IMG/VR virus record: IMGVR_UViG_3300045988_081755
Strand: one strand, 5' to 3'
DNA: 64,000 nt
Origin: a virus
Shown: positions 597-61,311 of the stretch, piece by piece
Layout of the letters: each line of letters begins with the position of its first letter
How positions within the stretch are numbered: the stretch's first letter is position 1
Program-made: the position numbers and the translations under genes
The notes under the pieces: model-generated
What the model was told of the DNA's origin: nothing
The model's database searches: none
What the model saw: the letters and a program-made list of their open reading frames with translations, nothing else

Positions 597-1046
597 TTAT
601 TTTTTGCCGGAATGACCAAATCCACCCGCACCTCTCTCAGTGTCAGTGAGTTCTTCGACTGAAGAAACTTCGACAACTTCCTCGGCTTTTGCATACGGAG
701 CAAAGACGATTTGGGCAATTCTGTCACCATTCTCGATTGTTTGTGGTTCTGTCGACAGGTTAATCAACGGAACACCTACTTCCCCACGATAGTCAGCATC
801 GATTGTTCCGGGAGCATTGATTACGGTCAAACCTTGTTTCACGGCACAACCGCTGCGAGGTCTAACTTGTCCTTCGTGTCCGGGTTCGATTTCCATGTAC
901 AGCCCAGTCGGAATAATTTTTCTTTCCATAGGGTTCAACACGATTGAGCCTTCCGGAAGATAAGCTCTTAAATCCATTCCTGAACTGTCAGGAGTTTTGT
1001 ACTCGGGAAGCGCATTCCCACTCTTGTTTACGATTTTCAGTTTCAT
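597..1046 (-). CDS. dut: dUTP diphosphatase (dUTPase)
   Basis: Trimeric dUTPase motifs: SSGMDLRA, GTIDADYRGEVGVPLINLS, RIAQIVF and C-terminal RGAGGFGHSG. Confidence 0.9.
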   Translation of the reverse strand: MKLKIVNKSGNALPEYKTPDSSGMDLRAYLPEGSIVLNPMERKIIPTGLYMEIEPGHEGQVRPRSGCAVKQGLTVINAPGTIDADYRGEVGVPLINLSTEPQTIENGDRIAQIVFAPYAKAEEVVEVSSVEELTDTERGAGGFGHSGKK

Positions 1047-4254: not shown

Positions 4255-6354
4255 TTATACTGCATCAACTTTAATTAGAACGGTGCTCTCTCGTAGCTTG
4301 TTAATTGCCATGAAAGATGAAGAAACTGTATCATCGTGCCCACTGATACTCTCAAGAGTTCCCTTATCGCTTCGAAAAGCAACACTATTGAACTCCCCAA
4401 ACATCTGGTCTACTTTTTGCTTCGTATCCGGATGATACGGGCACTTGATAGCTCCTCTCTCATATAACGCTGCGAGCGACGCCCATCCTGTTCTCAAATC
4501 CTTTTTATTCCCGGAAGTAGTCGTGAATGGCGTGATGTTCTTTATTCCCATTTGAACGCACATATCAGCCAAAATACTTTGAAAGCCGTTGTTCTCAACT
4601 ACTATCTCATTTGGCTTAAATACACGGTTCAACAAATCTATCTTTGATATCTGTTCATTATGGGATAAGCCTTTCTCACGGTAAATGTGCAACAGGTAGT
4701 AATTTCCTTGGATATCCTTTCCCCAAACTGTATAGCAGGTATAGTCGGCTCCCACGTTACCCGACACGGCAAAGTCGCAACCAATCACCACCCGTACCAA
4801 CTTGATAGGAAAAGACTCAATATTATCTACCAACCTGATGTTTTCCATCCCGATTGTACTCCTCTTTAATATCTCCCAAGGGAATATTGTACTGTCGTCG
4901 GAAATAGGTACGACAAGGTACTCACGAGAGAATACCATCGTCCCCAGAGACAGTTTTTCCTCCATTAGCTTATTCCATGTGAAGCGGTCAGGAGCTAACA
5001 GACGTCCGTCCGGAAATATTGCAGGGTACTCAAAGACCTTGAACTTCGGGTCTTTCTTTAATTCGGCATATAAGTCCTCCTGCTGATACGGTGTACCATC
5101 AACGAGATTATACCCATACGGCTCAACAATAGGAGTGATAGCACCTTTAAACAGGTCTCTCAGCTTCTCACGCTGTTCCAGCGAATAGATACTACTTTCG
5201 TCAGGCAAGTCATCACTGACTGCTGCCCCAACGTGAAGACCACGAATAAACCCGTCCTTTCCACGTAGGTGTAATTTCGTACCATTTTCACATTCTATAC
5301 TCGTCGCTGCCAGTGAAGCCTTCCCAGTAGGGTTCAGTTTCGCTGCCAACGCTTCATTCACACGAATTTCCTCTACCACCTTGTCGATATGCTGTTTACC
5401 CAGCTTCTCCGTATTGGTGATAATACAGGTTTCCTGACGATTCTTATTATCTGGAATGTCAGGTCTCATAAACGTTGGTCGTCTATAACTATACAGCCTC
5501 CACAACGGAAACGCCATACAGAACTCATAGGAGTTGTGAACAACGGTTCCATCCTCTAATTGAAACAGGTGGTCACCATCGCACATAAATCCATAATAAG
5601 ACTCTTCCCCTATCGGTGAAACTGTTATATTACTCCTTTCTAAGACAGGCTTATCAAATGAGAAAACTCTGTACCCCTGAAATCTTCTTTGTTTCTTTTC
5701 AGGATACTTCAGGAATTGACCCATTTCAATCTCAACATATTTCTTTCGCTTCGTATCCCACAGGCACATCACGTGTGCTCGGTTCACCGCATATGGCATA
5801 CCGTTTTCTTGCTCAACCCTGAACATCTGTGCCCGACCTATATGCCGAGTCAGAACTTTTCGAGGTGTAAAATCAATTCCCATGACTTCCATTCCGGGAT
5901 AAATGTCTTCAACGTTCTTCACGGAAAAGTCCGCCATTAAGATACGAGTCCCTCTGGCAAAACACTTTCCGTGAGAACGAGCAGCAAGATAAGCACTGTT
6001 CGGATATAGTTGAACCATGTTCCCCCATTCAAGATTTCTCCAACCTTGACGAAAATTAGGAAGCATAGTCGTTTTGAAATAGTTGTACGACTGAACCTTT
6101 AAGGTCTCATCCATTGATTCCTCTAATTGGTCAATGTAGTTAAGCCGTTCAGTCTCAAGAGTAGTATTTAGGGAAAGAACATTATTTGTCTGAATGAAGA
6201 TTTCTGATAGGAGTGCGTCCACATCACCCCCATAGCCGTTCATCAACTGATTTACAGCCACAGGTGGTAAAGACTCTATAACGTTGAACGCAGTAGAAAA
6301 GACGGTGTCCAACTGTTTATATGATAGCTTCAAATCTTCATTAAAATGTATCAT
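4255..6354 (-). CDS. terL: terminase large subunit interrupted by a mini-intein
   Basis: The P-loop AARSHGK/S is reconstituted once residues 131-274 are removed. The C-terminal RNaseH-like nuclease has acidic motifs VIGCDFAVSG, VVENNGFQS and HDDTVSS. Confidence 0.8.
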   Translation of the reverse strand: MIHFNEDLKLSYKQLDTVFSTAFNVIESLPPVAVNQLMNGYGGDVDALLSEIFIQTNNVLSLNTTLETERLNYIDQLEESMDETLKVQSYNYFKTTMLPNFRQGWRNLEWGNMVQLYPNSAYLAARSHGKCFARGTRILMADFSVKNVEDIYPGMEVMGIDFTPRKVLTRHIGRAQMFRVEQENGMPYAVNRAHVMCLWDTKRKKYVEIEMGQFLKYPEKKQRRFQGYRVFSFDKPVLERSNITVSPIGEESYYGFMCDGDHLFQLEDGTVVHNSYEFCMAFPLWRLYSYRRPTFMRPDIPDNKNRQETCIITNTEKLGKQHIDKVVEEIRVNEALAAKLNPTGKASLAATSIECENGTKLHLRGKDGFIRGLHVGAAVSDDLPDESSIYSLEQREKLRDLFKGAITPIVEPYGYNLVDGTPYQQEDLYAELKKDPKFKVFEYPAIFPDGRLLAPDRFTWNKLMEEKLSLGTMVFSREYLVVPISDDSTIFPWEILKRSTIGMENIRLVDNIESFPIKLVRVVIGCDFAVSGNVGADYTCYTVWGKDIQGNYYLLHIYREKGLSHNEQISKIDLLNRVFKPNEIVVENNGFQSILADMCVQMGIKNITPFTTTSGNKKDLRTGWASLAALYERGAIKCPYHPDTKQKVDQMFGEFNSVAFRSDKGTLESISGHDDTVSSSFMAINKLRESTVLIKVDAV
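5533..5964 (-). mobile_element. mini-intein (144 aa, Hint domain, no endonuclease domain) in the TerL Walker A loop
   Basis: It starts with Cys straight after GK (CFARGTRILMADF). Block B is VNRAHVM. It ends GTVVHN followed by Ser(+1). Coordinates were checked codon by codon. Confidence 0.75.
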
Positions 6355-9137: not shown

Positions 9138-9740
9138 TCAAGACAATTTTAGTTTTAAAATCTTATTTCTTCTCATTATCTGAGCCTCAGACAATTTACG
9201 TCTATGCTCCTCGGTCATCTTTTTACCAAAGAATGGGTGATTCTTTCCACTCTTTGAAGCGGACATTTTCTTACGAGTATCTTCCGAATGTCTTTTATGG
9301 TAGAAGGGATTCTTCTTTCCAATTTTTGACTCAGAAAGCCTCCTTCTTTTCTCTGGGGTTAAATTTTCTCTTCTTTTAGATTCAGCCATCTTTTTAATGG
9401 CGTCTTCAGAAAGACTCATCCCCAAAGTTCCCTCACCACCATCGGTTGAATTATAACCATGTTTTCGGGTGTCGAATTTCTGAATGAAATACTGTTCGAG
9501 AAAATCGAGTTTCTTCTTAAGAACGTCTTTCGTAGGAGCGGAAACTGTCAGAACTTCTTCAACCAGGAAGTTCTCCTCACCATACTTTCGTATGGCTCGG
9601 TGGAACTTGTGGTCGGAGCCTCGTTCGGTTGAACAAATATGCCTCCTCCATCTATTTTCTATGGAGTAAACTGTCTGCCCAAAGTACCATTTCCCAGTGG
9701 GCAGACAGGTGACGCAATATATTCGACCATTGAAGCTCAT
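9138..9740 (-). CDS. GIY-YIG homing endonuclease with NUMOD3 repeats
   Basis: GRIYCVT...WYFGQT...RWRRH...NSTDGGEG catalytic domain. Two NUMOD3-like repeats follow: SESKIGKKNPFYHKRHSEDTRKKMS and ASKSGKNHPFFGKKMTEEHRRKLS. Confidence 0.8.
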   Translation of the reverse strand: MSFNGRIYCVTCLPTGKWYFGQTVYSIENRWRRHICSTERGSDHKFHRAIRKYGEENFLVEEVLTVSAPTKDVLKKKLDFLEQYFIQKFDTRKHGYNSTDGGEGTLGMSLSEDAIKKMAESKRRENLTPEKRRRLSESKIGKKNPFYHKRHSEDTRKKMSASKSGKNHPFFGKKMTEEHRRKLSEAQIMRRNKILKLKLS

Positions 9741-15663: not shown

Positions 15664-16580
15664 ATCTGAATATTTGTTACAAGAAAATTATTCGTTACTG
15701 TCTTCACCTGTATCTTCATGAAGATAGCGTCTTCCTTCCTGTACAGGTCAAGAAGATTTACTGATACCCACCGAGCGTCCCTTTGAAACATATTCACCAA
15801 GTGTTTGAACAGGGACGGATACTGTATGGCATTCACGGAAGAACCGATAGCCTCATTAGGAAGCCCATAATTCGGAAACTCCGGAATTGTACCTTTCAAA
15901 GCATGAATGATTGTGTCCAAAGCCTGCCCAATAGCAGCCTCGTATTCAAGCGTCGCCAAGTCATCGTTCTCAAACCGAAAGTTCTTATCGATGTCCTTAC
16001 CGAGTATCTTTTCAGAATCAAGGTTATCAACAATATTCGGAATATTGAAATTCCCCGATGTTCTGATATTAATCTTGAACATTCCTCCACCTGTATTCGC
16101 ATCGTAGTCCTCTTCCTCTACTGCGTTATTTCGAGCAATATCTACCCAATCATCCTGAGGATTGTTCGAGCCTAACTGTGATGATACATTCTCAAACGTT
16201 TCCCGAGTCTTAAGAACTCTTTGAAGAGCAACATTCATTCCGTACCGTCCAATAATAGCTGAACGCAACCATCGTGATGAATTGTCTATCGTCCACAACT
16301 TCGTTTGGCATTCAGTGAACATATCAAGCAATTCCCAAGAATCAATCCTGGAAAGACCTGTCGCCTTTAATGTGAACAACGGCTCAATTTCCTGCGATTG
16401 CTTCATCAGGGTGTCAAGCCTACCAAACGAGTCCCCAATATTGACATCGTCTTGACCTGTATAGTAAGCAACTATCAGTGGATAGTAGGAGTTGCAAAAC
16501 AATGCAAACGACTCAAAGTACGATTGAATGTCGTACCCTGTTTGTTTCTTAAATGTCTCTAATGCGTCTCTCATAACCAT
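15660..16580 (-). CDS. baseplate-associated protein (hypothetical)
   Basis: 306-aa ORF coupled by overlap to the J-like gene. Confidence 0.4.
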   Translation of the reverse strand: MVMRDALETFKKQTGYDIQSYFESFALFCNSYYPLIVAYYTGQDDVNIGDSFGRLDTLMKQSQEIEPLFTLKATGLSRIDSWELLDMFTECQTKLWTIDNSSRWLRSAIIGRYGMNVALQRVLKTRETFENVSSQLGSNNPQDDWVDIARNNAVEEEDYDANTGGGMFKINIRTSGNFNIPNIVDNLDSEKILGKDIDKNFRFENDDLATLEYEAAIGQALDTIIHALKGTIPEFPNYGLPNEAIGSSVNAIQYPSLFKHLVNMFQRDARWVSVNLLDLYRKEDAIFMKIQVKTVTNNFLVTNIQI

Positions 16581-30980: not shown

Positions 30981-31616
30981 TTAGGAAAGTTCCCAAGAAG
31001 TATTAGAAATGATTGTCTGAGATACGGCTGCACCGCTTGCTTCCAGAGTGATTGTATCATTACCGAATGCAAACGTCGGGTCACCAGCAGATTGCTTAAT
31101 CTGAATTTGCTGAGACTGCCCTCCAGCGGTCGTAACTTTCATGGCAGCGGTCAATTCATCAACCGATGTATTGGCTGCGATACCTGTGAAAGTAATACTG
31201 AACTCGAACTCCTGAGTCGCTCCAGGGTCACCAGTGATAGCCACATTATTAGTGGTCTCAACTCCACCAGCGGTGTATTTGCTCGGAAGAGTCAATTCCA
31301 AACCTCCCTCAACGACCGCACGAGTTTTCAAATCGACAAGTTCGAAATTCAACTTAGAAGAGTTGGATTTACCTGTGATTGTCAGGGTTCCACCTGCTTT
31401 TCCAACAGTTGTTTCAGCTCCGTCGTTGAACGAAACGAACTCTGCCTTTCCCTTCTGGATTACGGTGTACGTCTTATTCGGAGATACGCCCACTGCCACA
31501 CCAGTCACCGTGGTAGTACGTTGTTCACGACCAGTGTGAACTGTACCTGTGTTCTGAACTGTCGCATTACCATTTCCCGAAGCGGGAGCGACGGTCAGCC
31601 ATACTGCTTTTGCCAT
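30981..31616 (-). CDS. 211-aa BACON/Ig-like protein (second-half segment, one full module, first-half segment)
   Basis: It starts MAKAVWLTVAPASGNGNAT, homologous to the N-terminus of the 1294-aa protein. It ends ...ITLEASGAAVSQTIISNTSWELS*. Confidence 0.5.
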   Translation of the reverse strand: MAKAVWLTVAPASGNGNATVQNTGTVHTGREQRTTTVTGVAVGVSPNKTYTVIQKGKAEFVSFNDGAETTVGKAGGTLTITGKSNSSKLNFELVDLKTRAVVEGGLELTLPSKYTAGGVETTNNVAITGDPGATQEFEFSITFTGIAANTSVDELTAAMKVTTAGGQSQQIQIKQSAGDPTFAFGNDTITLEASGAAVSQTIISNTSWELS

Positions 31617-47482: not shown

Positions 47483-48022
47483 ATGGGCAAAGAAGATACA
47501 TTATCGGTTCTGAATATTCAAGCGGAAAACGACCGTCTGAATAAGCGTATCCTCTTTCTTGAGCGTGAAAATCGTGAACAGAGAAAGGAACTGTCAGACT
47601 ATGCTCGTAGGGAAAAGGAACTGTTGGAAGAGATAGACCGTTTGGAAGGAGAGCTCGATGAAATAACATTTGAGAAGCGTCCTAAATACAAGCCGGAAAA
47701 TCCAGCCGAAAGTGTTGACGACTTTCTCCTTCCAAAAGTAGATACTGGGACTGGGCTGAACCGAGTGGGCAAGATTGGCTTTGAAGAAGAGTGGGAAGAT
47801 GTCATGTATGCTTATACAGATGAAATCTTCGTTGAGTCAGATAAACCTGACGTCCTCTTCTATCGTGACGATGCTGAGAAATGCTTTATCACCCCCACGG
47901 GGAACACTCGGTTGCCTTTCCCTATTTTGCAAGAAGACCTTGACAGGTACAATATAATAAAAGTTCGACCATTGACTCAAGAGGAAATGGGGGAAGTGTG
48001 CAAAGAGTTCGATTTAACTTAA
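47483..48022 (+). CDS. coiled-coil hypothetical protein
   Basis: 179-aa ORF, 3 nt after the rep stop, with an N-terminal heptad-rich region. Confidence 0.45.
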   Translation: MGKEDTLSVLNIQAENDRLNKRILFLERENREQRKELSDYARREKELLEEIDRLEGELDEITFEKRPKYKPENPAESVDDFLLPKVDTGTGLNRVGKIGFEEEWEDVMYAYTDEIFVESDKPDVLFYRDDAEKCFITPTGNTRLPFPILQEDLDRYNIIKVRPLTQEEMGEVCKEFDLT

Positions 48023-48034
48023 AATTCATTCACA

Positions 48035-48298
48035 ATGTTTCAAATGAAAACTTTTCATTACTTGTATGTTATCATCGGAATGATGGTAGCTGCGTTCTTT
48101 GGAATTTCACTTGGGATGGGTATCACTTGCCTAATTCCGGTGTCATTCGTGGTGATTGGGCTGTTCGCCTACCAAAACATGAAGAAGAATCTTCCTGTCG
48201 GACAGGCTATTCTCAATGGCGGTTTACCACCCCTGATAGGTGGTCTTCTGATTTGGCTGTGTTTCTTGCTGGGGAATTGGTTCAATATAGGTGGATAA
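48035..48298 (+). CDS. small integral membrane protein (about 3 TM helices)
   Basis: 87 aa and almost entirely hydrophobic. TAATG overlap with the next gene. Confidence 0.5.
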   Translation: MFQMKTFHYLYVIIGMMVAAFFGISLGMGITCLIPVSFVVIGLFAYQNMKKNLPVGQAILNGGLPPLIGGLLIWLCFLLGNWFNIGG

Positions 48299-48603
48299 TG
48301 AAGAAACTTGTATTCCTATTCTTGACGTTGCTGATTGTAGGCTGTGGGACGACTCGAAAGACCGTGTTCTTTGAGCGAGTAACCCCACAGCCTCTTTCGG
48401 TGATTGACAGCCTGAACACCGTTCACGGCTTGAGCGTTCCTACGAATTTAAACTCGTGGGGCAAAACGTACTTCATCGGGAATGATTCCGTGATGACAAC
48501 TGTTTACGTCTTGACTGAAAGGAAGAAAGACACTTTATTTATCTTTTCTGTTACTGAAACAGCCGGAAAAGAAAATGTAATCTTTAAATTTAGGAAGGAA
48601 TGA
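48298..48603 (+). CDS. lipoprotein (101 aa)
   Basis: MKKLVFLFLTLLIVGCGTTRK is a signal peptide with a lipobox. The tracked ORF 47998..48603 is a GTG-started upstream extension of this frame. Confidence 0.55.
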   Translation: MKKLVFLFLTLLIVGCGTTRKTVFFERVTPQPLSVIDSLNTVHGLSVPTNLNSWGKTYFIGNDSVMTTVYVLTERKKDTLFIFSVTETAGKENVIFKFRKE

Positions 48604-49181
48604 TTACAAGAGGACTTGGATTTATTGAAAGTGGCGTCAATCCGAATGACGCCATTTATGCAGCTCCAAAGATTGAACTCCCGAAGAGCTATGAACTGAA
48701 AGAGCAACTCCGTGTCTATGACCAAGGAAACAAAGGAAGCTGCGTTTCCTGTACCGTTGCGGAGATGTTCAACTTCTATTGTAAATCGAAAGGTCGTGAA
48801 TCGGGCATCGGTTTCGAATACATTTACGACAACCGTTCTGACAAGACTATTGACGGAATGATGCCTCGTGAGGCTTTCGAAATTCTTAAACGGGAATCTC
48901 GTATTGATTTATTCGCTCGTGTGACGTCTCTTGACGCTCTCAAAAAGAGCGTTCTTGTCAATGGCGCAGCACTTATAGCGATGAATGTATTTTCGTATAA
49001 TGACGACTTTTGGGATGGCGATGAATTCATGGGTGGTCATGCTGTGGCTGTCGTTGGTTATGATGAAACAGGCTTAATCATTAAGAACTCCTGGGGTACA
49101 GGGTTCGGTCGTGGTGGCTATGTTACTCTCCCATACGGAAAGTTTAACAAAGTACGAGAAGCCTGGACTCTGCTGGGTTAA
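48600..49181 (+). CDS. papain-family (C1) cysteine peptidase, no pro-region or signal peptide
   Basis: QGNKGSCVSC carries the oxyanion Gln and the catalytic Cys. GGHAVAVVGYDETGLIIKNSWGTGFGRGGY carries the His and the Asn-Ser-Trp. Confidence 0.8.
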   Translation: MITRGLGFIESGVNPNDAIYAAPKIELPKSYELKEQLRVYDQGNKGSCVSCTVAEMFNFYCKSKGRESGIGFEYIYDNRSDKTIDGMMPREAFEILKRESRIDLFARVTSLDALKKSVLVNGAALIAMNVFSYNDDFWDGDEFMGGHAVAVVGYDETGLIIKNSWGTGFGRGGYVTLPYGKFNKVREAWTLLG

Positions 49182-49202
49182 TCTTTCGTTACTATTTGCG
49201 AG

Positions 49203-49238
49203 GAGCACTTCTTTCAGGAGTGCTCTTTGTTTTTCTTC
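49203..49238 (+). terminator. rho-independent terminator of the rep-to-peptidase operon
   Basis: Stem GAGCACT / AGTGCTC followed by TTTGTTTTTCTTC. Confidence 0.55.
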
Positions 49239-49250
49239 GAAAATCAAGAA

Positions 49251-49568
49251 GGAGTCTCCCTGTCGCAAGCTGGCGTTCCCTACGCAATTTCCGGTACAAC
49301 TATCAACATCACTGGATATGGTTCAGGCAAAGGAACTGTTAGCGTAACAGCTCCAGCAGGGGGTTCTTGGAGTATTGACTTCGCAAGCAATGCTTTCAGC
49401 CTTACTGCTTCGCCATCATCGGGTACTGGTCCGAACAGTTCCGTCACTATCAATGCTATCAATGATTCTGGTCAAACAGGTATTCACAGAATTAATATCT
49501 ATCTTAAAAACGGCTCAACGGTTGTTGATACAGCAACCGTTCAAGTTCGTATAACTTCTCAAGGATGA
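49251..49568 (+). other. silent alternative 3' cassette A (no start codon, no promoter)
   Basis: Begins GVSLSQAGVP at crossover site A, immediately after a terminator. The tracked start at 49227 is a TTG inside the terminator U-tract. The ~96-aa domain is unrelated to cassettes B and C. Confidence 0.5.
49253..49270 (+). repeat. putative inversion crossover site A (AGTCTCCCTGTCGCAAGC)
   Basis: 18/18 identical to site C and 17/18 to the reverse complement of site B, in the same codon phase. Confidence 0.55.
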
Positions 49569-49580
49569 TTATGAAGGAAA

Positions 49581-49602
49581 GGAGCTGGGATATCCCAGCT
49601 CC
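49581..49602. terminator. perfect 22-bp palindrome between convergent cassettes A and B (bidirectional terminator)
   Basis: GGAGCTGGGATATCCCAGCTCC lies between the stop at 49566-68 (+) and the stop at 49612-14 (-). Confidence 0.5.
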
Positions 49603-49611
49603 CAATTCCAA

Positions 49612-50700
49612 TTATGGTGTGATAGTTTGGTTTTCAGCTTTAAGAGTGAAAGTTGAAAAGTACCTAGAGTCGAATATATTTTGGCCACCCCGCTGAATGC
49701 GTACTGTAATAGTGTCACCAGCTTTGGCTTGAACAGTTTCCATCCTGCTTCCTGGTTTACAAACTGTCAATCCGTTTGTATTATTCCACATAATTGAGGC
49801 ATTTTCATACCCAGAACCCATAGAATAATAATCATTTGGACCATACAATGGAATACCCGTTGAATTAAATAGATAAGCGGTTGCTCCTGTATAATTACGG
49901 AACTTAATTGTTAGGGTAAATCGGGAAACGACGGCTGCTTGCAACAGGGAGACTGCTTGGGTCTTACCACTACCAGTCTGCGTATAGGAAACAGAACCGC
50001 CTCTCGAACCGCTTTGATTGGACGCAGCCGTAATAGATGTTCCATCCGTGTTCTTGCTGAACCCTGTTCCGCTAATCGTAGCCGTCCATGCAACATTTTC
50101 CTGGGTCGATGTTTCGACTCCGTTTATAACTTTCTTTCGGTAGGAAATTACGGTAACGGATTTCGTTCCACCACCAGCGACGAAACTGAGCGATGTCGGA
50201 GTCACGGAGAAGTAATAGTTCCAAGTTACTACTCCCGCAGCCTGACTCAATGAAATAGAAGCTGTTTTCCCACTTGTCCCCTGTGTATAGGAAACAGAAC
50301 CGCTTCTCGAACCGCTTTGATTGGACGCAGCCGTAATAGATGTTCCATCCGTGTTCTTGCTGAACCCTGTTCCGCTAATCGTAGCCGTCCATGCAACATT
50401 TTCCTGGGTCGATGTTTCGACTCCGTTTATAACTTTCTTTCGGTAGGAAATTACGGTAACGGATTTCGTTCCACCACCAGCGACGAAACTGAGCGATGTC
50501 GGAGTCACGGAGAAGTAATAGTTCCAAGTTACTACTCCCGCAGCCTGACTTGCGCCAACAGTACGTGTCATCCCGCCACCAGCGACTGAAAGGCTCGTAC
50601 TGCGTGTGGATTCTGTCTGGTTAGCAGACGCTGCGACAGTCACAGTTGTGCTACCACTTCCTCCGGAGTCCGGAGTTGCTGTAATAAAATCTTTCTTCAT
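49612..50700 (-). CDS. BACON-like repeat protein with exchangeable C-terminal domain (currently fused to cassette B)
   Basis: Starts MKKDFITATPDSGGSGSTT, a second-half BACON-like segment. Two near-identical 101-aa modules follow, then the junction QAVSLLQAAVV and a 108-aa C-terminal domain. A TAAATTTG box lies upstream. Confidence 0.6.
   Translation of the reverse strand: MKKDFITATPDSGGSGSTTVTVAASANQTESTRSTSLSVAGGGMTRTVGASQAAGVVTWNYYFSVTPTSLSFVAGGGTKSVTVISYRKKVINGVETSTQENVAWTATISGTGFSKNTDGTSITAASNQSGSRSGSVSYTQGTSGKTASISLSQAAGVVTWNYYFSVTPTSLSFVAGGGTKSVTVISYRKKVINGVETSTQENVAWTATISGTGFSKNTDGTSITAASNQSGSRGGSVSYTQTGSGKTQAVSLLQAAVVSRFTLTIKFRNYTGATAYLFNSTGIPLYGPNDYYSMGSGYENASIMWNNTNGLTVCKPGSRMETVQAKAGDTITVRIQRGGQNIFDSRYFSTFTLKAENQTITP
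49928..49960 (-). repeat. putative inversion crossover site B (inside the expressed gene)
   Basis: The reverse complement CCAAGCAGTCTCCCTGTTGCAAGCAGCCGTCGT matches site C at 32 of 33 positions. Confidence 0.55.
49982..50550 (-). repeat. tandem 303-bp duplication (two 266-bp copies, 1 mismatch)
   Basis: 49982-50247 matches 50285-50550 at an offset of exactly 303 bp (101 codons). The only difference is C50001 versus T50304. Confidence 0.85.
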
Positions 50701-50739
50701 AATTCTTAAAATTAGTTATAACTAAATGAAATTTCACCG

Positions 50740-50747
50740 CAAATTTA
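50740..50747 (-). promoter_or_regulatory. -7 promoter element TAAATTTG for the BACON-repeat gene
   Basis: Exact TAnnTTTG, 40 nt upstream of ATG 50700. It lies inside the segment bounded by sites B and C. Confidence 0.4.
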
Positions 50748-50752
50748 GCGGT

Positions 50753-51208
50753 TTATATCTCGAAATCAAAATCCTTTGTCGTTATCCTACAAAACGAGCC
50801 TTCCGGAGAAAGGCATATCACCTCTGTTTGGTCGTCTAAATACGATACAGATAGGACGGGGAGATAAGTGTATCCATCAATATAGAAAATGCCTGCAGGC
50901 TCCCCGTTAAGACCGTCAAACGTGGGAACCTGTATCCTGGGGGATACGACCTGTTTACCGCCACCGAAAACTCCGAAGTCCCTAACAGTCTGTTTCACCG
51001 TGACGAGTACCTGTTCAAGCTCGTGAATATACTTGCGTTTCATGTTCAAGTAGGAATTAAGAATCATGCTGACCTCAATCTTCCCTTCAATTCCGTACAG
51101 TTTCCTCGTTTCATTGCGGAGAACCTGAAGTTCTCCTGCGGAGAGTTCTTCAAAATCCTTTTCAAGAATGTCGAGCAACTGTTTGTTTCGCTTTTCTTCT
51201 TTCTTCAT
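50753..51208 (-). CDS. hypothetical protein (inside the B-C segment)
   Basis: 151-aa ORF with no recombinase motifs. Confidence 0.45.
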   Translation of the reverse strand: MKKEEKRNKQLLDILEKDFEELSAGELQVLRNETRKLYGIEGKIEVSMILNSYLNMKRKYIHELEQVLVTVKQTVRDFGVFGGGKQVVSPRIQVPTFDGLNGEPAGIFYIDGYTYLPVLSVSYLDDQTEVICLSPEGSFCRITTKDFDFEI

Positions 51209-51293
51209 GTCTTCATTCTTTTATATGTAAAACGTTCTTTTTCCGACAATCAATTGATTTTACGCCAGAATCTTCCTTATTCATTTAAAATAG

Positions 51294-51689
51294 AGCCAAG
51301 CAGTCTCCCTGTCGCAAGCAGCCGTCGTAATAACCTATAAATATAGAATTGCACCTGAATTGATTACAGTTTCTAATTCGCAACATGGTTCTGTGACGAA
51401 AACTGTTCTGATGTATAAAGAGCGTTATGTGAATGGGGTTAAAGATGGTGAAGAGCAAATTGAATACTCTTTACTTGACCAAAATGGAAGTTATTCCCCT
51501 GTTCCTTCTACCACATACACAAATGTTTGGGGAGGAACTTGGACAATTGAAAAGACAGGGAATTCTTTAAGGGTAACGACAATTTCAGGAGGAAGCAATT
51601 CTTCTGGTGGAATCACTGGTGTGAAATTAATGCCTGGAACCAGTTATGCTGGGACAATAAATACCGATTTAAATTTGGGTCGTCCATAA
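51294..51689 (+). other. silent alternative 3' cassette C (no start codon)
   Basis: The frame opens right after TAG 51291-93 and reads SQAVSLSQAAVVITYKYRIAPE..., matching the junction in the expressed gene. The tracked ORF 51360 starts at an internal TTG. Confidence 0.5.
51296..51328 (+). repeat. putative inversion crossover site C
   Basis: CCAAGCAGTCTCCCTGTCGCAAGCAGCCGTCGT is inverted relative to site B. Confidence 0.55.
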
Positions 51690-51700
51690 TTTCAAATAAA

Positions 51701-51727
51701 AAGAGCGGAGTTTTCGGCTCCGCTCTT
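51701..51727. terminator. 10-bp-stem terminator (AAGAGCGGAG / CTCCGCTCTT)
   Basis: The minus strand has the U-tract TTTATTTG, serving gene 51777..52052. The hairpin also closes cassette C on the plus strand. Confidence 0.6.
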
Positions 51728-51776
51728 CCCTGTCGTCAAACAATAAATCAAAATATGAAAACACAACAAAGAGAAT

Positions 51777-52052
51777 TCATTTTCCTCTGATGATAGTAGT
51801 ATAACGGTCATAGATGGCATCCCAGTTCTTTTCGACAAGTTTGCATTTCTGTGTGAAAGACTTATCGTTGAAAGTGTTGATGTTTTGAAAGACTCCGGCT
51901 TTCAGTTCCGGATGCCACATCTTTAGAAAGATACCCTGTTCACTGATGAAGCCTATTTCCTCACCCTTGTAAACTAACTGTGCATATTCTGACGTGGGCA
52001 TTCCGGCTCCACCCTTTACCGTTACTCGATTTATTTCAATAGGTGCTATCAT
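51777..52052 (-). CDS. hypothetical protein
   Basis: 91-aa ORF followed by a strong terminator. Confidence 0.45.
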   Translation of the reverse strand: MIAPIEINRVTVKGGAGMPTSEYAQLVYKGEEIGFISEQGIFLKMWHPELKAGVFQNINTFNDKSFTQKCKLVEKNWDAIYDRYTTIIRGK

Positions 52053-52344
52053 GATTCCTTTTCTTTAAGTTGTGATTTGATTCGAAGATTGTAGTTATCC
52101 CATATCAATTGAGCGTGTTCCTTGACCCAGTTTACTGCATACCTGTGGTCTTGGGGTTCTTTTAGTCTCAAATAAACAGGTTTGGGGTACAGTACAGGCA
52201 CAGTGATGAATTTCCTGTAACGGACATGATTGATTCTCCTTTGTAGAAAATCTGTGAACTTCTTTGTTCACCGCAAGCACGCTGAAGTTTTGACGGCTTC
52301 CCACCTCTCTTTGATGTAAACTTTATCTTTGCCATAATCATTAA

Positions 52345-61017: not shown

Positions 61018-61311
61018 TTATTTCTTCTTGCCTTTCTTCGGCTCAATCACTGTTTTCACAGTTTTAGAAGCCTTGAACGCCAATGTATGAGACTCCGGCA
61101 CGTTCATAGGTTTCTGAGTCAACGGATTCACACCCGTTTTTGCCGGATTGATTTTCTGTTTGAATTTACCGAACGGAAGGCTGATTTCATCGCCTTTCTC
61201 AACGCAAGTTTCAACGATTACCGGAGTAAGAGCGTCAATTACTTTTTCGGTATCTCTCTGGGTCATACCAGCTACTTCGGCAACTTTTGCCACGAATTCT
61301 GACTTTCTCAT
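61018..61311 (-). CDS. hup: HU/IHF-family DNA-binding protein
   Basis: MRKSEFVAKVAE...TQRDTEKVIDAL...ISLPFGKFKQKINPAKTGVNPLTQKPMNVPESHTLAFKASK is the canonical HU fold signature. Confidence 0.85.
   Translation of the reverse strand: MRKSEFVAKVAEVAGMTQRDTEKVIDALTPVIVETCVEKGDEISLPFGKFKQKINPAKTGVNPLTQKPMNVPESHTLAFKASKTVKTVIEPKKGKKK

Follow-up and report, generated by a model that had tools for sequence, protein, structure and literature searches.

The BACON-repeat locus in the window

We analysed a window of 64,000 nt from the IMG/VR record IMGVR_UViG_3300045988_081755, in which the locus occupies positions 49,182-51,727. The carrier is a myovirus of the human gut, uncultured and abundant, with a genome of about 109 kb; in an exact-sequence look-up, one of its proteins was indexed in 631 assembly-collection blocks, with contigs of up to about 109 kb. 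The whole-genome view (about 109 kb) is a composite of the window and the remaining genome as taken from relatives. Metagenomic contigs of sister phages served as comparison material, and arrangements were compared contig against contig. The features are as follows.

48600..49181: papain-like peptidase gene, the left neighbour
49198..49230, plus strand: terminator hairpin (15-pair stem, then a T run) closing LF, just upstream of site A
49250..49272, plus strand: site A, LF context; core 49253-49270, AGTCTCCCTGTCGCAAGC
49253..49568, plus strand: silent cassette A, BACON_2-type, about 100 aa past the junction, in frame
49581..49602, no strand: perfect 22-nt palindrome GGAGCTGGGATATCCCAGCTCC between the convergent cassettes A and B
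49612..50700, minus strand: whole BACON-repeat gene, 362 aa
49612..49936, minus strand: cassette B, the C-terminal domain now expressed, all-beta
49937..49954, minus strand: core of site B (18-mer search), EX context, 3' end of the constant region; long form 49928-49960
49955..50700, minus strand: constant region of the BACON gene
50093..50126, minus strand: first 34-nt copy of the second repeat (IR2), encoding INGVETSTQENV
50396..50429, minus strand: second 34-nt copy of IR2
50753..51208, minus strand: 151-aa gene inside the central invertible segment, upstream of the BACON gene
51209..51301, minus strand: region upstream of the 151-aa/BACON operon, presumed promoter; holds the PE context
51302..51319, plus strand: perfect core of site C (repeat and 18-mer search), PE context; long form 51296-51328
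51302..51689, plus strand: silent cassette C, about 120 aa past the junction
51701..51727, no strand: terminator hairpin AAGAGCGGAG-TTTTCGG-CTCCGCTCTT at the right-flank junction
61021..61311: HU/IHF-like protein

With up to three mismatches allowed, exactly three copies of AGTCTCCCTGTCGCAAGC were found in the window, in the orientations +, -, +. The number expected from shuffles was 0.02, and three or more copies were reached in 0 of 100 shuffled sequences. The repeat finder reported B/C as a 37-nt inverted repeat (95% complementary), the strongest across the entire 64 kb, and A/B as a 28-nt inverted repeat (86%). An earlier note on this DNA had described site C as an inverted copy of site B with 32 of 33 bases matching, and an inverted 18-nt core at 49253-49270 (17/18 to B, 18/18 to C). 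Coordinates and sequence were both confirmed, as was the common codon phase of the three sites; the reverse complement of 49928-49960 (site B) is CCAAGCAGTCTCCCTGTTGCAAGCAGCCGTCGT. The note's claim that DNA identity at the sites exceeds protein conservation also holds, because the internal junction ISLSQAAGVV (about 50231-50262) encodes the same peptide with codons (ATT TCA TTG AGT CAG GCT) that differ from those of the site. Site A has G at -1 and T at +1, which differ from the flank bases of B and C. The core of site B carries one mismatch (TCG to TTG, giving VSLLQA), a change shared by the near-identical contigs L136 and L138 and by protein P0001. Uninterrupted matches are thereby cut to 11 and 6 nt against site A and to 17 and 15 nt against site C.

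Neither cassette A nor cassette C contains a stop codon, and both are intact and in frame. The three cassettes are unrelated as proposed, with similarity confined to the site; cassette A, however, is itself BACON-type (BACON_2, E = 1.3e-5, Pfam). For cassette B, the predicted structure (pLDDT 65) shows a CBM41 likeness (E = 2.8e-3, TM 0.47), a weak, low-confidence hint of resemblance to carbohydrate-binding modules. The plus-strand reading frames had been described as lacking start codons. This is right for cassette C, where a TAG (51291-51293) directly precedes the frame and this stop-capped PE context keeps the cassette silent. Site A does follow the terminator hairpin at 49198-49230, but a possible TTG start at 49227 means that cassette A is not strictly start-less. 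The perfect palindrome noted between the convergent cassettes lies at 49581-49602, is kept in relatives (for example L152, 9941-9978) and is probably a bidirectional terminator. When the A-B and B-C inversions were made in silico, cassettes A and C were fused to the gene as the earlier note had predicted, in uninterrupted reading frames of 353 and 377 aa; the native product has 362 aa.

Within the constant region, a 303-bp module is duplicated in tandem (49961-50247 and 50264-50550, 97% identical). Only one module (about 260 aa) is present in most relatives and in the near-identical strain L138. Because of this duplication, the two IR2 copies in the window are direct and not inverted. Upstream of the 151-aa/BACON operon (51209..51301), no promoter was identified. 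The 151-aa protein is predicted to fold into three helices and SH3/Tudor-like barrels (pLDDT 88), and structure comparison gave no PDB match below E = 0.08. The predicted fold is not a known recombinase fold. Its gene is an ancestral resident, being found also in L257, a relative without the shufflon.

The fourth (RF) site of four-site relatives and its partner cassette are absent here. What the window carries is a reduced copy of the locus: three cassettes, three sites of which one is mutated, and an IR2 that is not inverted. Given the mismatch in site B and the missing fourth site, this copy may be sluggish or locked.

Arrangements among sister phages

Sister phages provided about 120 metagenomic loci, in which the core marks about 266 phage-type sites. 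Four classes of upstream context can be told apart (LF, EX, PE and RF), and the cassettes that follow the sites are of at least 14 types. Every common cassette type was found behind all four contexts, with LF/EX/PE/RF counts of 9/22/14/5 for c1, 13/10/11/7 for c2 and 7/5/7/9 for c3. Among the 12 complete four-site loci, 10 different arrangements were present, and the same four cassettes were seen in several permutations. Site orientation alternates along the full locus (+, -, +, -). The full, ancestral layout comprises four sites with four cassettes, and the second repeat class adds a fifth cassette that is fixed. The earlier note had suggested comparing relatives for cassette number and orientation; the three cassettes that it regarded as a distinguishing feature are not unusual.

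Inversion at the repeats between near-identical genomes was observed. Loci L021 and L002 share a central segment of 1681 nt that is 100.00% identical yet inverted, and a cassette segment of 718 nt that is 100.00% identical, in total 2.4 kb of identical sequence. Altogether, 23 locus pairs at least 99% identical match in both orientations, and the segment ends lie at repeats. The architecture and its in-frame products are shown as well. In 324 homologous proteins, more than 12 different C-termini stand behind one N-terminus. Other genomes contain 10 fusions of the constant region with A-type cassettes (cluster c2). Fusions with C-type cassettes (cluster c5), joined at the site, occur in L008, L015, L173 and L231, and proteins P0019 (375 aa), P0109 and P0117 combine the constant region with a C-type cassette. 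Thus, the fusions that the earlier note expected from in-phase repeats and one constant gene are present in sister genomes. No deletion product between directly repeated sites was seen in the sister-phage loci. In six contigs near-identical to the window no alternative arrangement was found, all having the window's own. Switching inside populations may be expected from the contig comparisons.

Recombination at the two repeat classes

Every junction has the same asymmetric block, AG-N-AGTCTCCCTGTCGCAAGC, encoding ..VSLSQA.. in one phase. The block from -3 to +18 was almost invariant across 50 unique contexts, including five synonymous positions, and remained so in the LF and RF contexts, which are non-coding. 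At +1 the synonymous base changes freely, and beyond the block identity drops to about 50%. Core positions 1-15 were constant between lineages whose flanks are just 72-82% identical, and no allele co-varied between sites at these positions, unlike in IR2. An invariant core beside a free +1 base argues for recognition of sequence, and not mere identity. Core position -1 co-varies within genomes (32/36 loci). One variant of the core's 3' end stays with its cassette in every case, which places the crossover 5' of position 16. Dyad symmetry in the block reached at best 6 of 10 positions, a value typical of shuffled sequence.

IR2 is unrelated in sequence to the core, and it also flips DNA between near-identical genomes. 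Its copies are inverted in 58 related loci, where they bound a second invertible unit. The arms are identical in 51 of 57 loci with at least six co-varying alleles, and in 40 of 57 they match without interruption over exactly 34 nt.

Among the window ORFs no serine or tyrosine recombinase was detectable (Pfam, PHROGs, NCBIfam), in agreement with the earlier note. The search of the rest of the genome that it proposed, made with Pfam on the relatives-derived composite, gave no recognisable invertase, and scans of the composite of about 109 kb detected no recombinase of the serine, tyrosine or DEDD type. We also searched for the exact core in one genome per species from 185,579 bacterial and archaeal species. 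Eight single matches were found in unrelated, non-Bacteroidota genomes, which look like chance. As the core is otherwise absent from these genomes, no host locus among them shares it. The phage does encode a genuine RecA, along with SNF2-related and UvrD-type helicases, a Metallophos calcineurin-like phosphoesterase and a NinG/Rap-like endonuclease. A diversity-generating retroelement was rejected: no scan gave a reverse-transcriptase domain, and whole domains are swapped, in place of adenine-directed substitutions.

We explain the locus by a switch of the following kind. The central segment, with its putative promoter, carries the 151-aa gene together with the N-terminal, constant portion of the BACON-repeat protein, and is flanked by segments with convergent, start-less C-terminal cassettes. 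Conservative recombination between any two inverted sites, with the crossover 5' of core position 16, would flip the DNA between them and join another cassette in frame to the constant region, while cassettes behind terminators or stop codons would remain silent. An inner unit flipping at the 34-nt second repeat gives access to the fifth, fixed cassette. Recombination at the core may depend on an enzyme provided in trans, either a host invertase or an unrecognised phage protein, because none is detectable in the phage.

The sister loci support a real shufflon-type multiple-inversion switch. Combined with sequence-specific recombination at its core, performed by an enzyme in trans, it gives the best explanation, which as a whole we think somewhat more probable than not. 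As catalyst, such a putative enzyme is slightly favoured over homology-driven inversion. The latter, a tentative alternative, would dispense with a dedicated invertase: general homology-dependent recombination between short inverted repeats, through the phage RecA machinery or RecA-independent replication template switching, could flip the DNA, with gene conversion and selection keeping the repeats perfectly identical. It would fit a composite genome that has RecA, the listed helicases, phosphoesterase and endonuclease and an HU-like protein but shows no site-specific recombinase, and it would fit the missing site in host reference genomes. That two sequence-unrelated repeat classes both flip DNA points the same way, as do the co-varying IR2 alleles with their exact 34-nt identity, the homogenised position -1 and arms 96-100% identical over 23-28 nt within a genome, which is near the minimal length for efficient RecA action. 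The locus has also undergone further rearrangements of a kind known from homologous recombination, the tandem module duplication among them. However, core positions 1-15, which stay constant between diverged flanks without co-varying alleles and next to a free +1 base, speak against homology. The LF-RF and LF-EX site pairs share just about 21 nt, which is short for RecA; known RecA-dependent inversion systems use much longer homology; and deletions between direct sites were not seen. Were the invertase-free reading true, two families of matched inverted linker repeats of 21-34 nt at domain boundaries, with RecA and its partners, might flip segments frequently enough to serve as a programmed switch among five C-terminal domains, an idea to which we give the same limited credence. 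The universal linker would then also let lineages trade cassettes in co-infection.

The copy in the window could be locked in the cassette-B state, its other cassettes being silent leftovers of a system active in sister lineages. We consider this rather unlikely, although the short runs left by the site B mismatch, the deviating -1 and +1 bases of site A and the loss of the RF site with its partner cassette all speak for it. The near-identical contigs are likewise all window-like, and any breaks in them fall at the tandem module repeat instead of the sites; but this comparison covers six contigs only, a single mismatch need not stop a site-specific enzyme, and cassettes A and C have kept intact frames. 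It is far less probable, and indeed very improbable, that the arrangements reflect module exchange between co-infecting phages or assembly chimeras over short repeats, and not intragenomic inversion. The window is indeed a mosaic, with the left flank and cassette A 94.8% identical to L025 and the remaining locus 87-90% to other lineages, and cassettes are clearly common to several lineages. Nevertheless, pairs that are 99.5-100% identical differ just in the orientation of repeat-bounded segments, the same four cassettes occur in several permutations, and arrangements recur over independent assemblies and collections. Moreover, the repeats (23-37 nt) are below the usual final k-mer sizes of metagenome assemblers.

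Relation to known inversion systems

In the R64/IncI1 shufflon, the Rci tyrosine recombinase acts on asymmetric sfx sites of about 19 bp, exchanges PilV C-termini and produces inversions only. The present locus resembles it in having a constant N-terminal coding region with alternative C-terminal segments joined by multiple inversions, in many permutations among the sister loci. Its short asymmetric sites (18-21 nt here) likewise stand in both orientations inside coding sequence, and inversions only were seen. R64 has a nearby Rci, whereas no Phage_integrase-family match was found in the window or composite genome. The locus also differs in belonging to a phage and not a plasmid, in carrying the putative promoter and constant region on an invertible segment, in having a second repeat class and in its unrelated site sequence.

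The serine invertases Gin, Cin, Pin and Min of Mu G, P1 C, e14 P and p15B have an adjacent invertase gene, dyad-symmetric 26-bp sites and a Fis-dependent enhancer; p15B Min has many cassettes and six crossover sites. The likeness to Mu Gin and P1 Cin drawn in the earlier note holds for function, since phage-borne inversion swaps a C-terminal part (specificity-determining in those systems) behind a constant N-terminal part. It does not extend to design, which the asymmetric site brings closer to the R64 shufflon. The Gin, Hin, Cin and Min systems need a Resolvase-family protein, a small serine recombinase with an HTH encoded beside the invertible segment, and none was found in the window ORFs or composite genome. 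Their sites have dyad half-sites around a 2-bp core, whereas the site here lacks dyad symmetry. Unlike in the Gin, Cin, Pin and Min phage systems, inversion here acts on a BACON-repeat gene that is not part of the tail module. The sap locus of Campylobacter fetus inverts by nested, RecA-dependent events between complete cassette genes with several hundred bp of conserved 5' homology. There too a promoter-bearing segment inverts between opposite cassettes without a dedicated invertase, which offers a precedent for homology-driven inversion. In contrast to the hundreds of bp in sap, homology here is 21-37 nt (core) or 34 nt (IR2), and the cassettes are C-terminal domains only.

A tail-fibre shufflon with three non-homologous cassettes has been described in BV01-like temperate phages of Phocaeicola vulgatus (PMC13596623, preprint of September 2026). 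Those cassettes overlap the distal end of a carbohydrate-binding protein gene, and all configurations were detected in reads; the siphovirus has a flanking recombinase and a directional 10-bp motif, TGGGAGAACT, at cassette borders (PMC13596623). Both are shufflons in Bacteroidaceae phages, but ours is in an unrelated myovirus of about 109 kb with a different site and no recombinase detected. With at most one mismatch, TGGGAGAACT occurred 6 times in the window against 4.8 expected, and never at the locus. Gene-altering inversions and intragenic invertons of gut Bacteroidales are chromosomal and linked to Mpi- or Tsr-type invertases (PMC9881135). They share with our locus intragenic inverted repeats that create alternative protein ends, as well as the ecosystem and, probably, the host phylum; the survey reported no BACON phage locus (PMC9881135).

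The BACON gene lies outside the structural module and has no similarity to the BACON protein encoded within that module.

The locus represents a known shufflon principle in a new setting, a phage BACON-repeat gene without a recognisable invertase. Bacteroidales constantly vary their capsules and surface proteins through DNA inversion. To our knowledge, the means by which their virulent phages keep up are largely unknown. The present data indicate that a prevalent gut phage uses the inversion strategy of the Bacteroidales, with a stock of at least 14 end domains that can replace one another on the BACON protein, up to five per genome, and near-identical genomes caught in differing configurations. 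These variable end domains may bind different glycans or receptors. The missing enzyme has three possible answers, namely a borrowed host invertase, a new recombinase family among the unannotated genes, or short repeats with RecA, and any one of them, if true, would be new for phage biology. A single reference sequence would mislead predictions of host range or adhesion. The sites also break metagenome assemblies: in 13 of 40 whole contigs an end lies no more than 60 nt from a site, a pattern that branching of the assembly graph would produce and that counts in favour of shuffling.

Repeats and cassettes in the window

The locus is built around a single BACON-repeat gene, and its elements are as follows.

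49612..50700, minus strand: BACON-repeat gene, 362 aa
49253-49270: site A, the 18-nt core AGTCTCCCTGTCGCAAGC
49928-49960: site B, CCAAGCAGTCTCCCTGTTGCAAGCAGCCGTCGT, inside the BACON-repeat gene
51296-51328: site C, inverted copy of the site B sequence (32 of 33 bases match)
49198-49230: terminator hairpin preceding site A
49581-49602: 22-nt palindrome
51291-51293: stop codon TAG preceding open reading frame (ORF) C
51701-51727: hairpin

The earlier note had described these elements as a shufflon-like locus, in which cassette B is currently expressed and cassettes A and C could be joined to the gene by inversion. Direct reading confirmed the elements, and the codon phase was identical for all copies of the core. 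When the inversions were carried out in silico, both products were uninterrupted, with 353 aa for A-B and 377 aa for B-C. The internal ISLSQAAGVV junction does use codons different from those at the sites, as had been claimed. The three cassettes have no common sequence past the junction. The gene gave weak BACON matches, and cassette A itself is a BACON_2 domain.

Using a repeat finder, we found that the B/C pair forms a 37-nt inverted repeat with 95% complementarity, which ranks top across the 64 kb, and that the A/B pair extends over 28 nt (86%). With up to three mismatches allowed, the core occurs exactly three times in the window, against 0.02 expected copies. Apart from these sites, the window has a single inverted repeat that reaches 22 nt with its arms within 6 kb of each other (15732-15757 and 16446-16471; 26 nt, 85% complementary, arms separated by 688 nt). 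It falls within a gene of the baseplate region and is probably a chance occurrence.

Rearrangements among related phages

We searched for the core as an exact pattern and obtained 27 viral contigs and 88 metagenome contigs; together they provide about 120 loci, which contain about 266 phage-type sites. The sequences upstream of the core, in core orientation, fall into four classes.

LF: sequence that follows the terminator of the peptidase gene
EX: 3' end of the constant (N-terminal) BACON region
PE: other end of the central segment (constant region plus 151-aa gene), capped by in-frame stop codons
RF: right flank

At least 14 cassette types were found downstream, and each common type was seen behind all four contexts.

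Table. Counts of cassette clusters c1, c2 and c3 behind the four upstream contexts.
Cluster: LF, EX, PE, RF
c1: 9, 22, 14, 5
c2: 13, 10, 11, 7
c3: 7, 5, 7, 9

The A-type cassette of the window (cluster c2) is fused to the constant region 10 times and the C-type cassette (c5) 5 times. The predicted fusions were also recovered among database proteins, where P0019 (375 aa) and P0109 have C-type ends; one N-terminus is combined there with more than 12 different C-termini. Complete loci carry four sites in the orientation +,-,+,-, with the layout LF[cassette> <cassette]-central segment-[cassette> <cassette]RF. Ten arrangements exist among the 12 complete loci, and three permutations of one four-cassette set were observed. 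No deletion products were seen among the related loci. Non-canonical layouts were found in L017, L187, L206, L214 and L234, where two adjacent sites are in direct orientation, the PE or EX site is absent, or the EX-like context is present twice. Such layouts suggest that sites have been lost and rearranged repeatedly, as in the window.

An all-against-all comparison yielded 23 locus pairs that match in both orientations at 99% identity or more, with breakpoints within the repeats. For example, two loci from different samples (L021 and L002) share 100.00% identity over the 1681-nt central segment and the 718-nt cassette segment, and the central segment is inverted between them. Inversion between near-identical genomes occurs at two repeat classes, the core and a second repeat termed IR2. 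Furthermore, among 40 whole contigs, 13 have an end no more than 60 nt from a site, far above the few per cent that would be expected for random ends; one instance is the abutting contigs L192 and L203 of a single assembly, both at about 540-580x coverage. The usual final assembler k-mers are longer than these repeats, so breaks at the sites suggest that samples hold mixed configurations.

Most relatives have a central segment that exceeds that of the window by about 590 nt. The extra sequence consists of an inverted BACON-module remnant and then a fixed cassette, which stops short of the PE site. IR2 is a 34-nt inverted repeat, TAAACGGAGTCGAAACATCAACCCAGGAAAATGT, which encodes INGVETSTQENV and borders an inner unit of about 865 nt containing the 151-aa gene and the BACON N-terminus. 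The inverted pair is present in 58 loci, and flips of the inner unit distinguish near-identical genomes. The two arms co-vary over at least six alleles, and in 40 of 57 loci they are perfectly identical over a run of exactly 34 nt. In L016, the inner unit is joined to the fixed cassette, which gives a complete 266-aa gene and leaves the EX site on a truncated fragment; the full system can thus present five different ends. In the window, the following copies are direct repeats, because a 303-bp module is tandemly duplicated.

50093-50126: IR2, first copy
50396-50429: IR2, second copy

The duplication comprises a whole BACON module (49961-50550), and its copies are 97% identical. A single module without the duplication is found in L138, which is otherwise 99.8-100% identical to the window. 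The assemblies of L137, L139 and L141 break at the duplication.

Candidate catalysts and comparison with known systems

In a comparison of 50 unique contexts, the block AG-N-AGTCTCCCTGTCGCAAGC-N-G is essentially invariant, and identity outside it is about 50%. The invariance extends to synonymous positions and to the non-coding LF and RF contexts, and base +1, which is synonymous, varies freely. No dyad symmetry was found in the conserved block. The GCAGGA variant of the core 3' end stays with its cassette in every upstream context, which places the crossover 5' of position 16. Position -1 is C or G; in 32 of 36 loci all sites have the same base there, and it varies between genomes.

To search for the catalyst, every window ORF of 150 aa or more was scanned with Pfam, and 56 unknown or small ORFs with PHROGs and NCBIfam. 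The rest of the genome, rebuilt from relatives (L028-L035, L036, L098 and L128), was scanned with Pfam; it comprised 10 kb past each window end and a remainder from a relative with 94-99% identity (contig 3300045988_073438; L036, L128 and L098). Within profile-recognisable families, this composite genome showed no recombinase of the serine or tyrosine type, no DEDD or DDE transposase and no reverse transcriptase. The only recombination-type matches were RecA, helicases, ligase and homing endonucleases. The RecA is genuine (L036:15005-15964; E = 1.8e-76 to solved RecA structures). Further phage genes specify helicases of the SNF2-related and UvrD types, a ligase, RNase H and a NinG/Rap-like endonuclease. 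A 97-aa DNA-bending protein of the HU/IHF family (61021..61311; NCBIfam IHF-alpha model, E = 2.7e-10) is encoded as well and could assist recombination where the segments are short (0.7 kb).

The 151-aa protein is unlikely to be a hidden invertase. Its confident model (pLDDT 88) consists of three helices and SH3/Tudor-like barrels, and nothing in the PDB matched it below E = 0.08. Nor is it a shufflon-specific factor: a homologue with the same flanking genes exists in the more distant L257, which has no BACON gene, cassettes or sites, so the gene is an older resident of the locus. A site common to phage and host was also considered. The exact core is absent from the Bacteroidota among reference genomes of 185,579 bacterial and archaeal species (one genome each), and the 8 matches in that set, all in unrelated non-Bacteroidota genomes, look like chance.

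We lean slightly towards inversion by a sequence-specific enzyme acting in trans. Core positions 1-15 do not vary between lineages, and this conservation stops abruptly at an adjacent synonymous base that is free to change; in addition, only about 21 nt are common to all four contexts, the site is asymmetric, and deletion products are absent. Inversion driven by homology is a tentative alternative that we credit less, and several results point to it. The composite genome yielded no invertase and the phage has its own RecA; two repeat classes of unrelated sequence are both active; and the IR2 arms co-vary with an exact 34-nt run, while position -1 is homogenised within genomes. A mixed mechanism is also possible, in which an enzyme recognises the core and IR2 recombines by homology. 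By eye, core and IR2 have GAGTC alone in common, which is compatible with chance.

Functionally, the locus is a shufflon. Its site design is like that of R64/Rci, it is a phage C-terminal switch like p15B Min and Mu G, and its invertible segment presumably carries a promoter, like that of C. fetus sap. By its features, the locus falls outside each of the enzyme-defined families compared. Among published systems, the nearest is a recombinase-flanked shufflon in BV01-like Phocaeicola phages (PMC13596623); it has a different motif, for which the window shows no enrichment. BACON adhesins of an unassigned group of myovirus-like gut phages, including a variant with an altered C-terminus, have been reported (PMC13370021); the variant could not be matched to the window gene. 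The locus was not described in the published literature searched. The missing recombinase and the two repeat classes are its genuinely unusual features.

State, role and setting of the window copy

The window copy has three sites, without the RF site and its partner cassette. The core of site B has a mismatch (TCG to TTG), also found in near-identical relatives, and site A differs from the other sites at -1 and +1. Near-identical contigs have one arrangement throughout and, if broken, are broken at the tandem module repeat, not at the sites. This copy may switch rarely or never; the silent cassettes are intact, and we consider it rather unlikely that the copy is locked.

The model of cassette B has low confidence (pLDDT 65), and its best structural matches, the carbohydrate-binding modules CBM41, CBM20 and CBM25 (E about 3e-3), are only a hint. 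Together with the BACON-like cassette A, they make variable glycan or receptor binding a reasonable inference. The protein could be a fibre, a decoration protein or a non-virion protein. Its gene adjoins the replication initiator, outside the structural module, and a search for an N-terminal anchor in common with the structural-module BACON protein (30981..31616) showed no similarity.

On the left, an ORF with an internal lipoprotein-type signal sequence, MKKLVFLFLTLLIVGCG (47998..48603; called as two genes of 101 and 87 aa in other assemblies), and a papain-like peptidase gene (48600..49181) are confined to genomes with the shufflon. On the right, a block encoding a 91-aa protein (51690-52188) is 98% identical even where the neighbouring genes of the lineages are about 72% identical to the window, which may reflect either very strong constraint or co-transfer during exchange of the shufflon module between lineages. 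The 442-aa and 91-aa neighbour proteins have no sequence relatives in the PDB. In L257 (4648-7100; contig 3300045988_070094), Rep3, 183-aa, 151-aa-type and 91-aa genes are consecutive, without peptidase, lipoprotein, BACON gene or cassettes. The whole shufflon block looks like an insertion at this spot.

The phage is tailed with a contractile tail, having genes for tail sheath, baseplate J protein, portal, large terminase subunit and major head protein. Contigs with exact copies of window proteins are 105-109 kb, and the index of the assembly collection lists one window protein in 631 blocks. INPHARED phages gave zero megablast matches to the locus or to the first 25 kb, and no close relative is deposited there. 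By tblastn, the major capsid protein reaches 35% identity with that of DAC19 and related phages of Bacteroides thetaiotaomicron, and otherwise matches only unannotated faecal contigs; this points to a Bacteroidales host.

A thymidine hypermodification gene set is present (HMUD2, HMUDK helicase-like kinase, thymidylate-synthase homologue and dUTPase; L032:11798-14680, just left of the window, and window 600..1046). The phage DNA is probably modified at T, as a 5-hmU derivative, and such modification, if present, would influence host enzymes working on the sites. The large terminase subunit (4255..6354) has 699 aa; precomputed Pfam matches of a homologue of identical length are an intein/Hint domain (Hom_end_hint) and Terminase_6C, and the terminase may harbour an intein. 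Free-standing GIY-YIG/NUMOD3 homing endonuclease genes (window 9138..9740; L128:11952-12710) are present in a strain-dependent manner; the one beside RNase T is missing from L033 and L035. To the right of the window (L028:2042-2578 and L029-L031), there are a Tad2-like/Sequestin gene of the anti-Thoeris sponge family, a phage sigma-70 factor, ferritin, a GroEL-type chaperonin and many small unknown ORFs.
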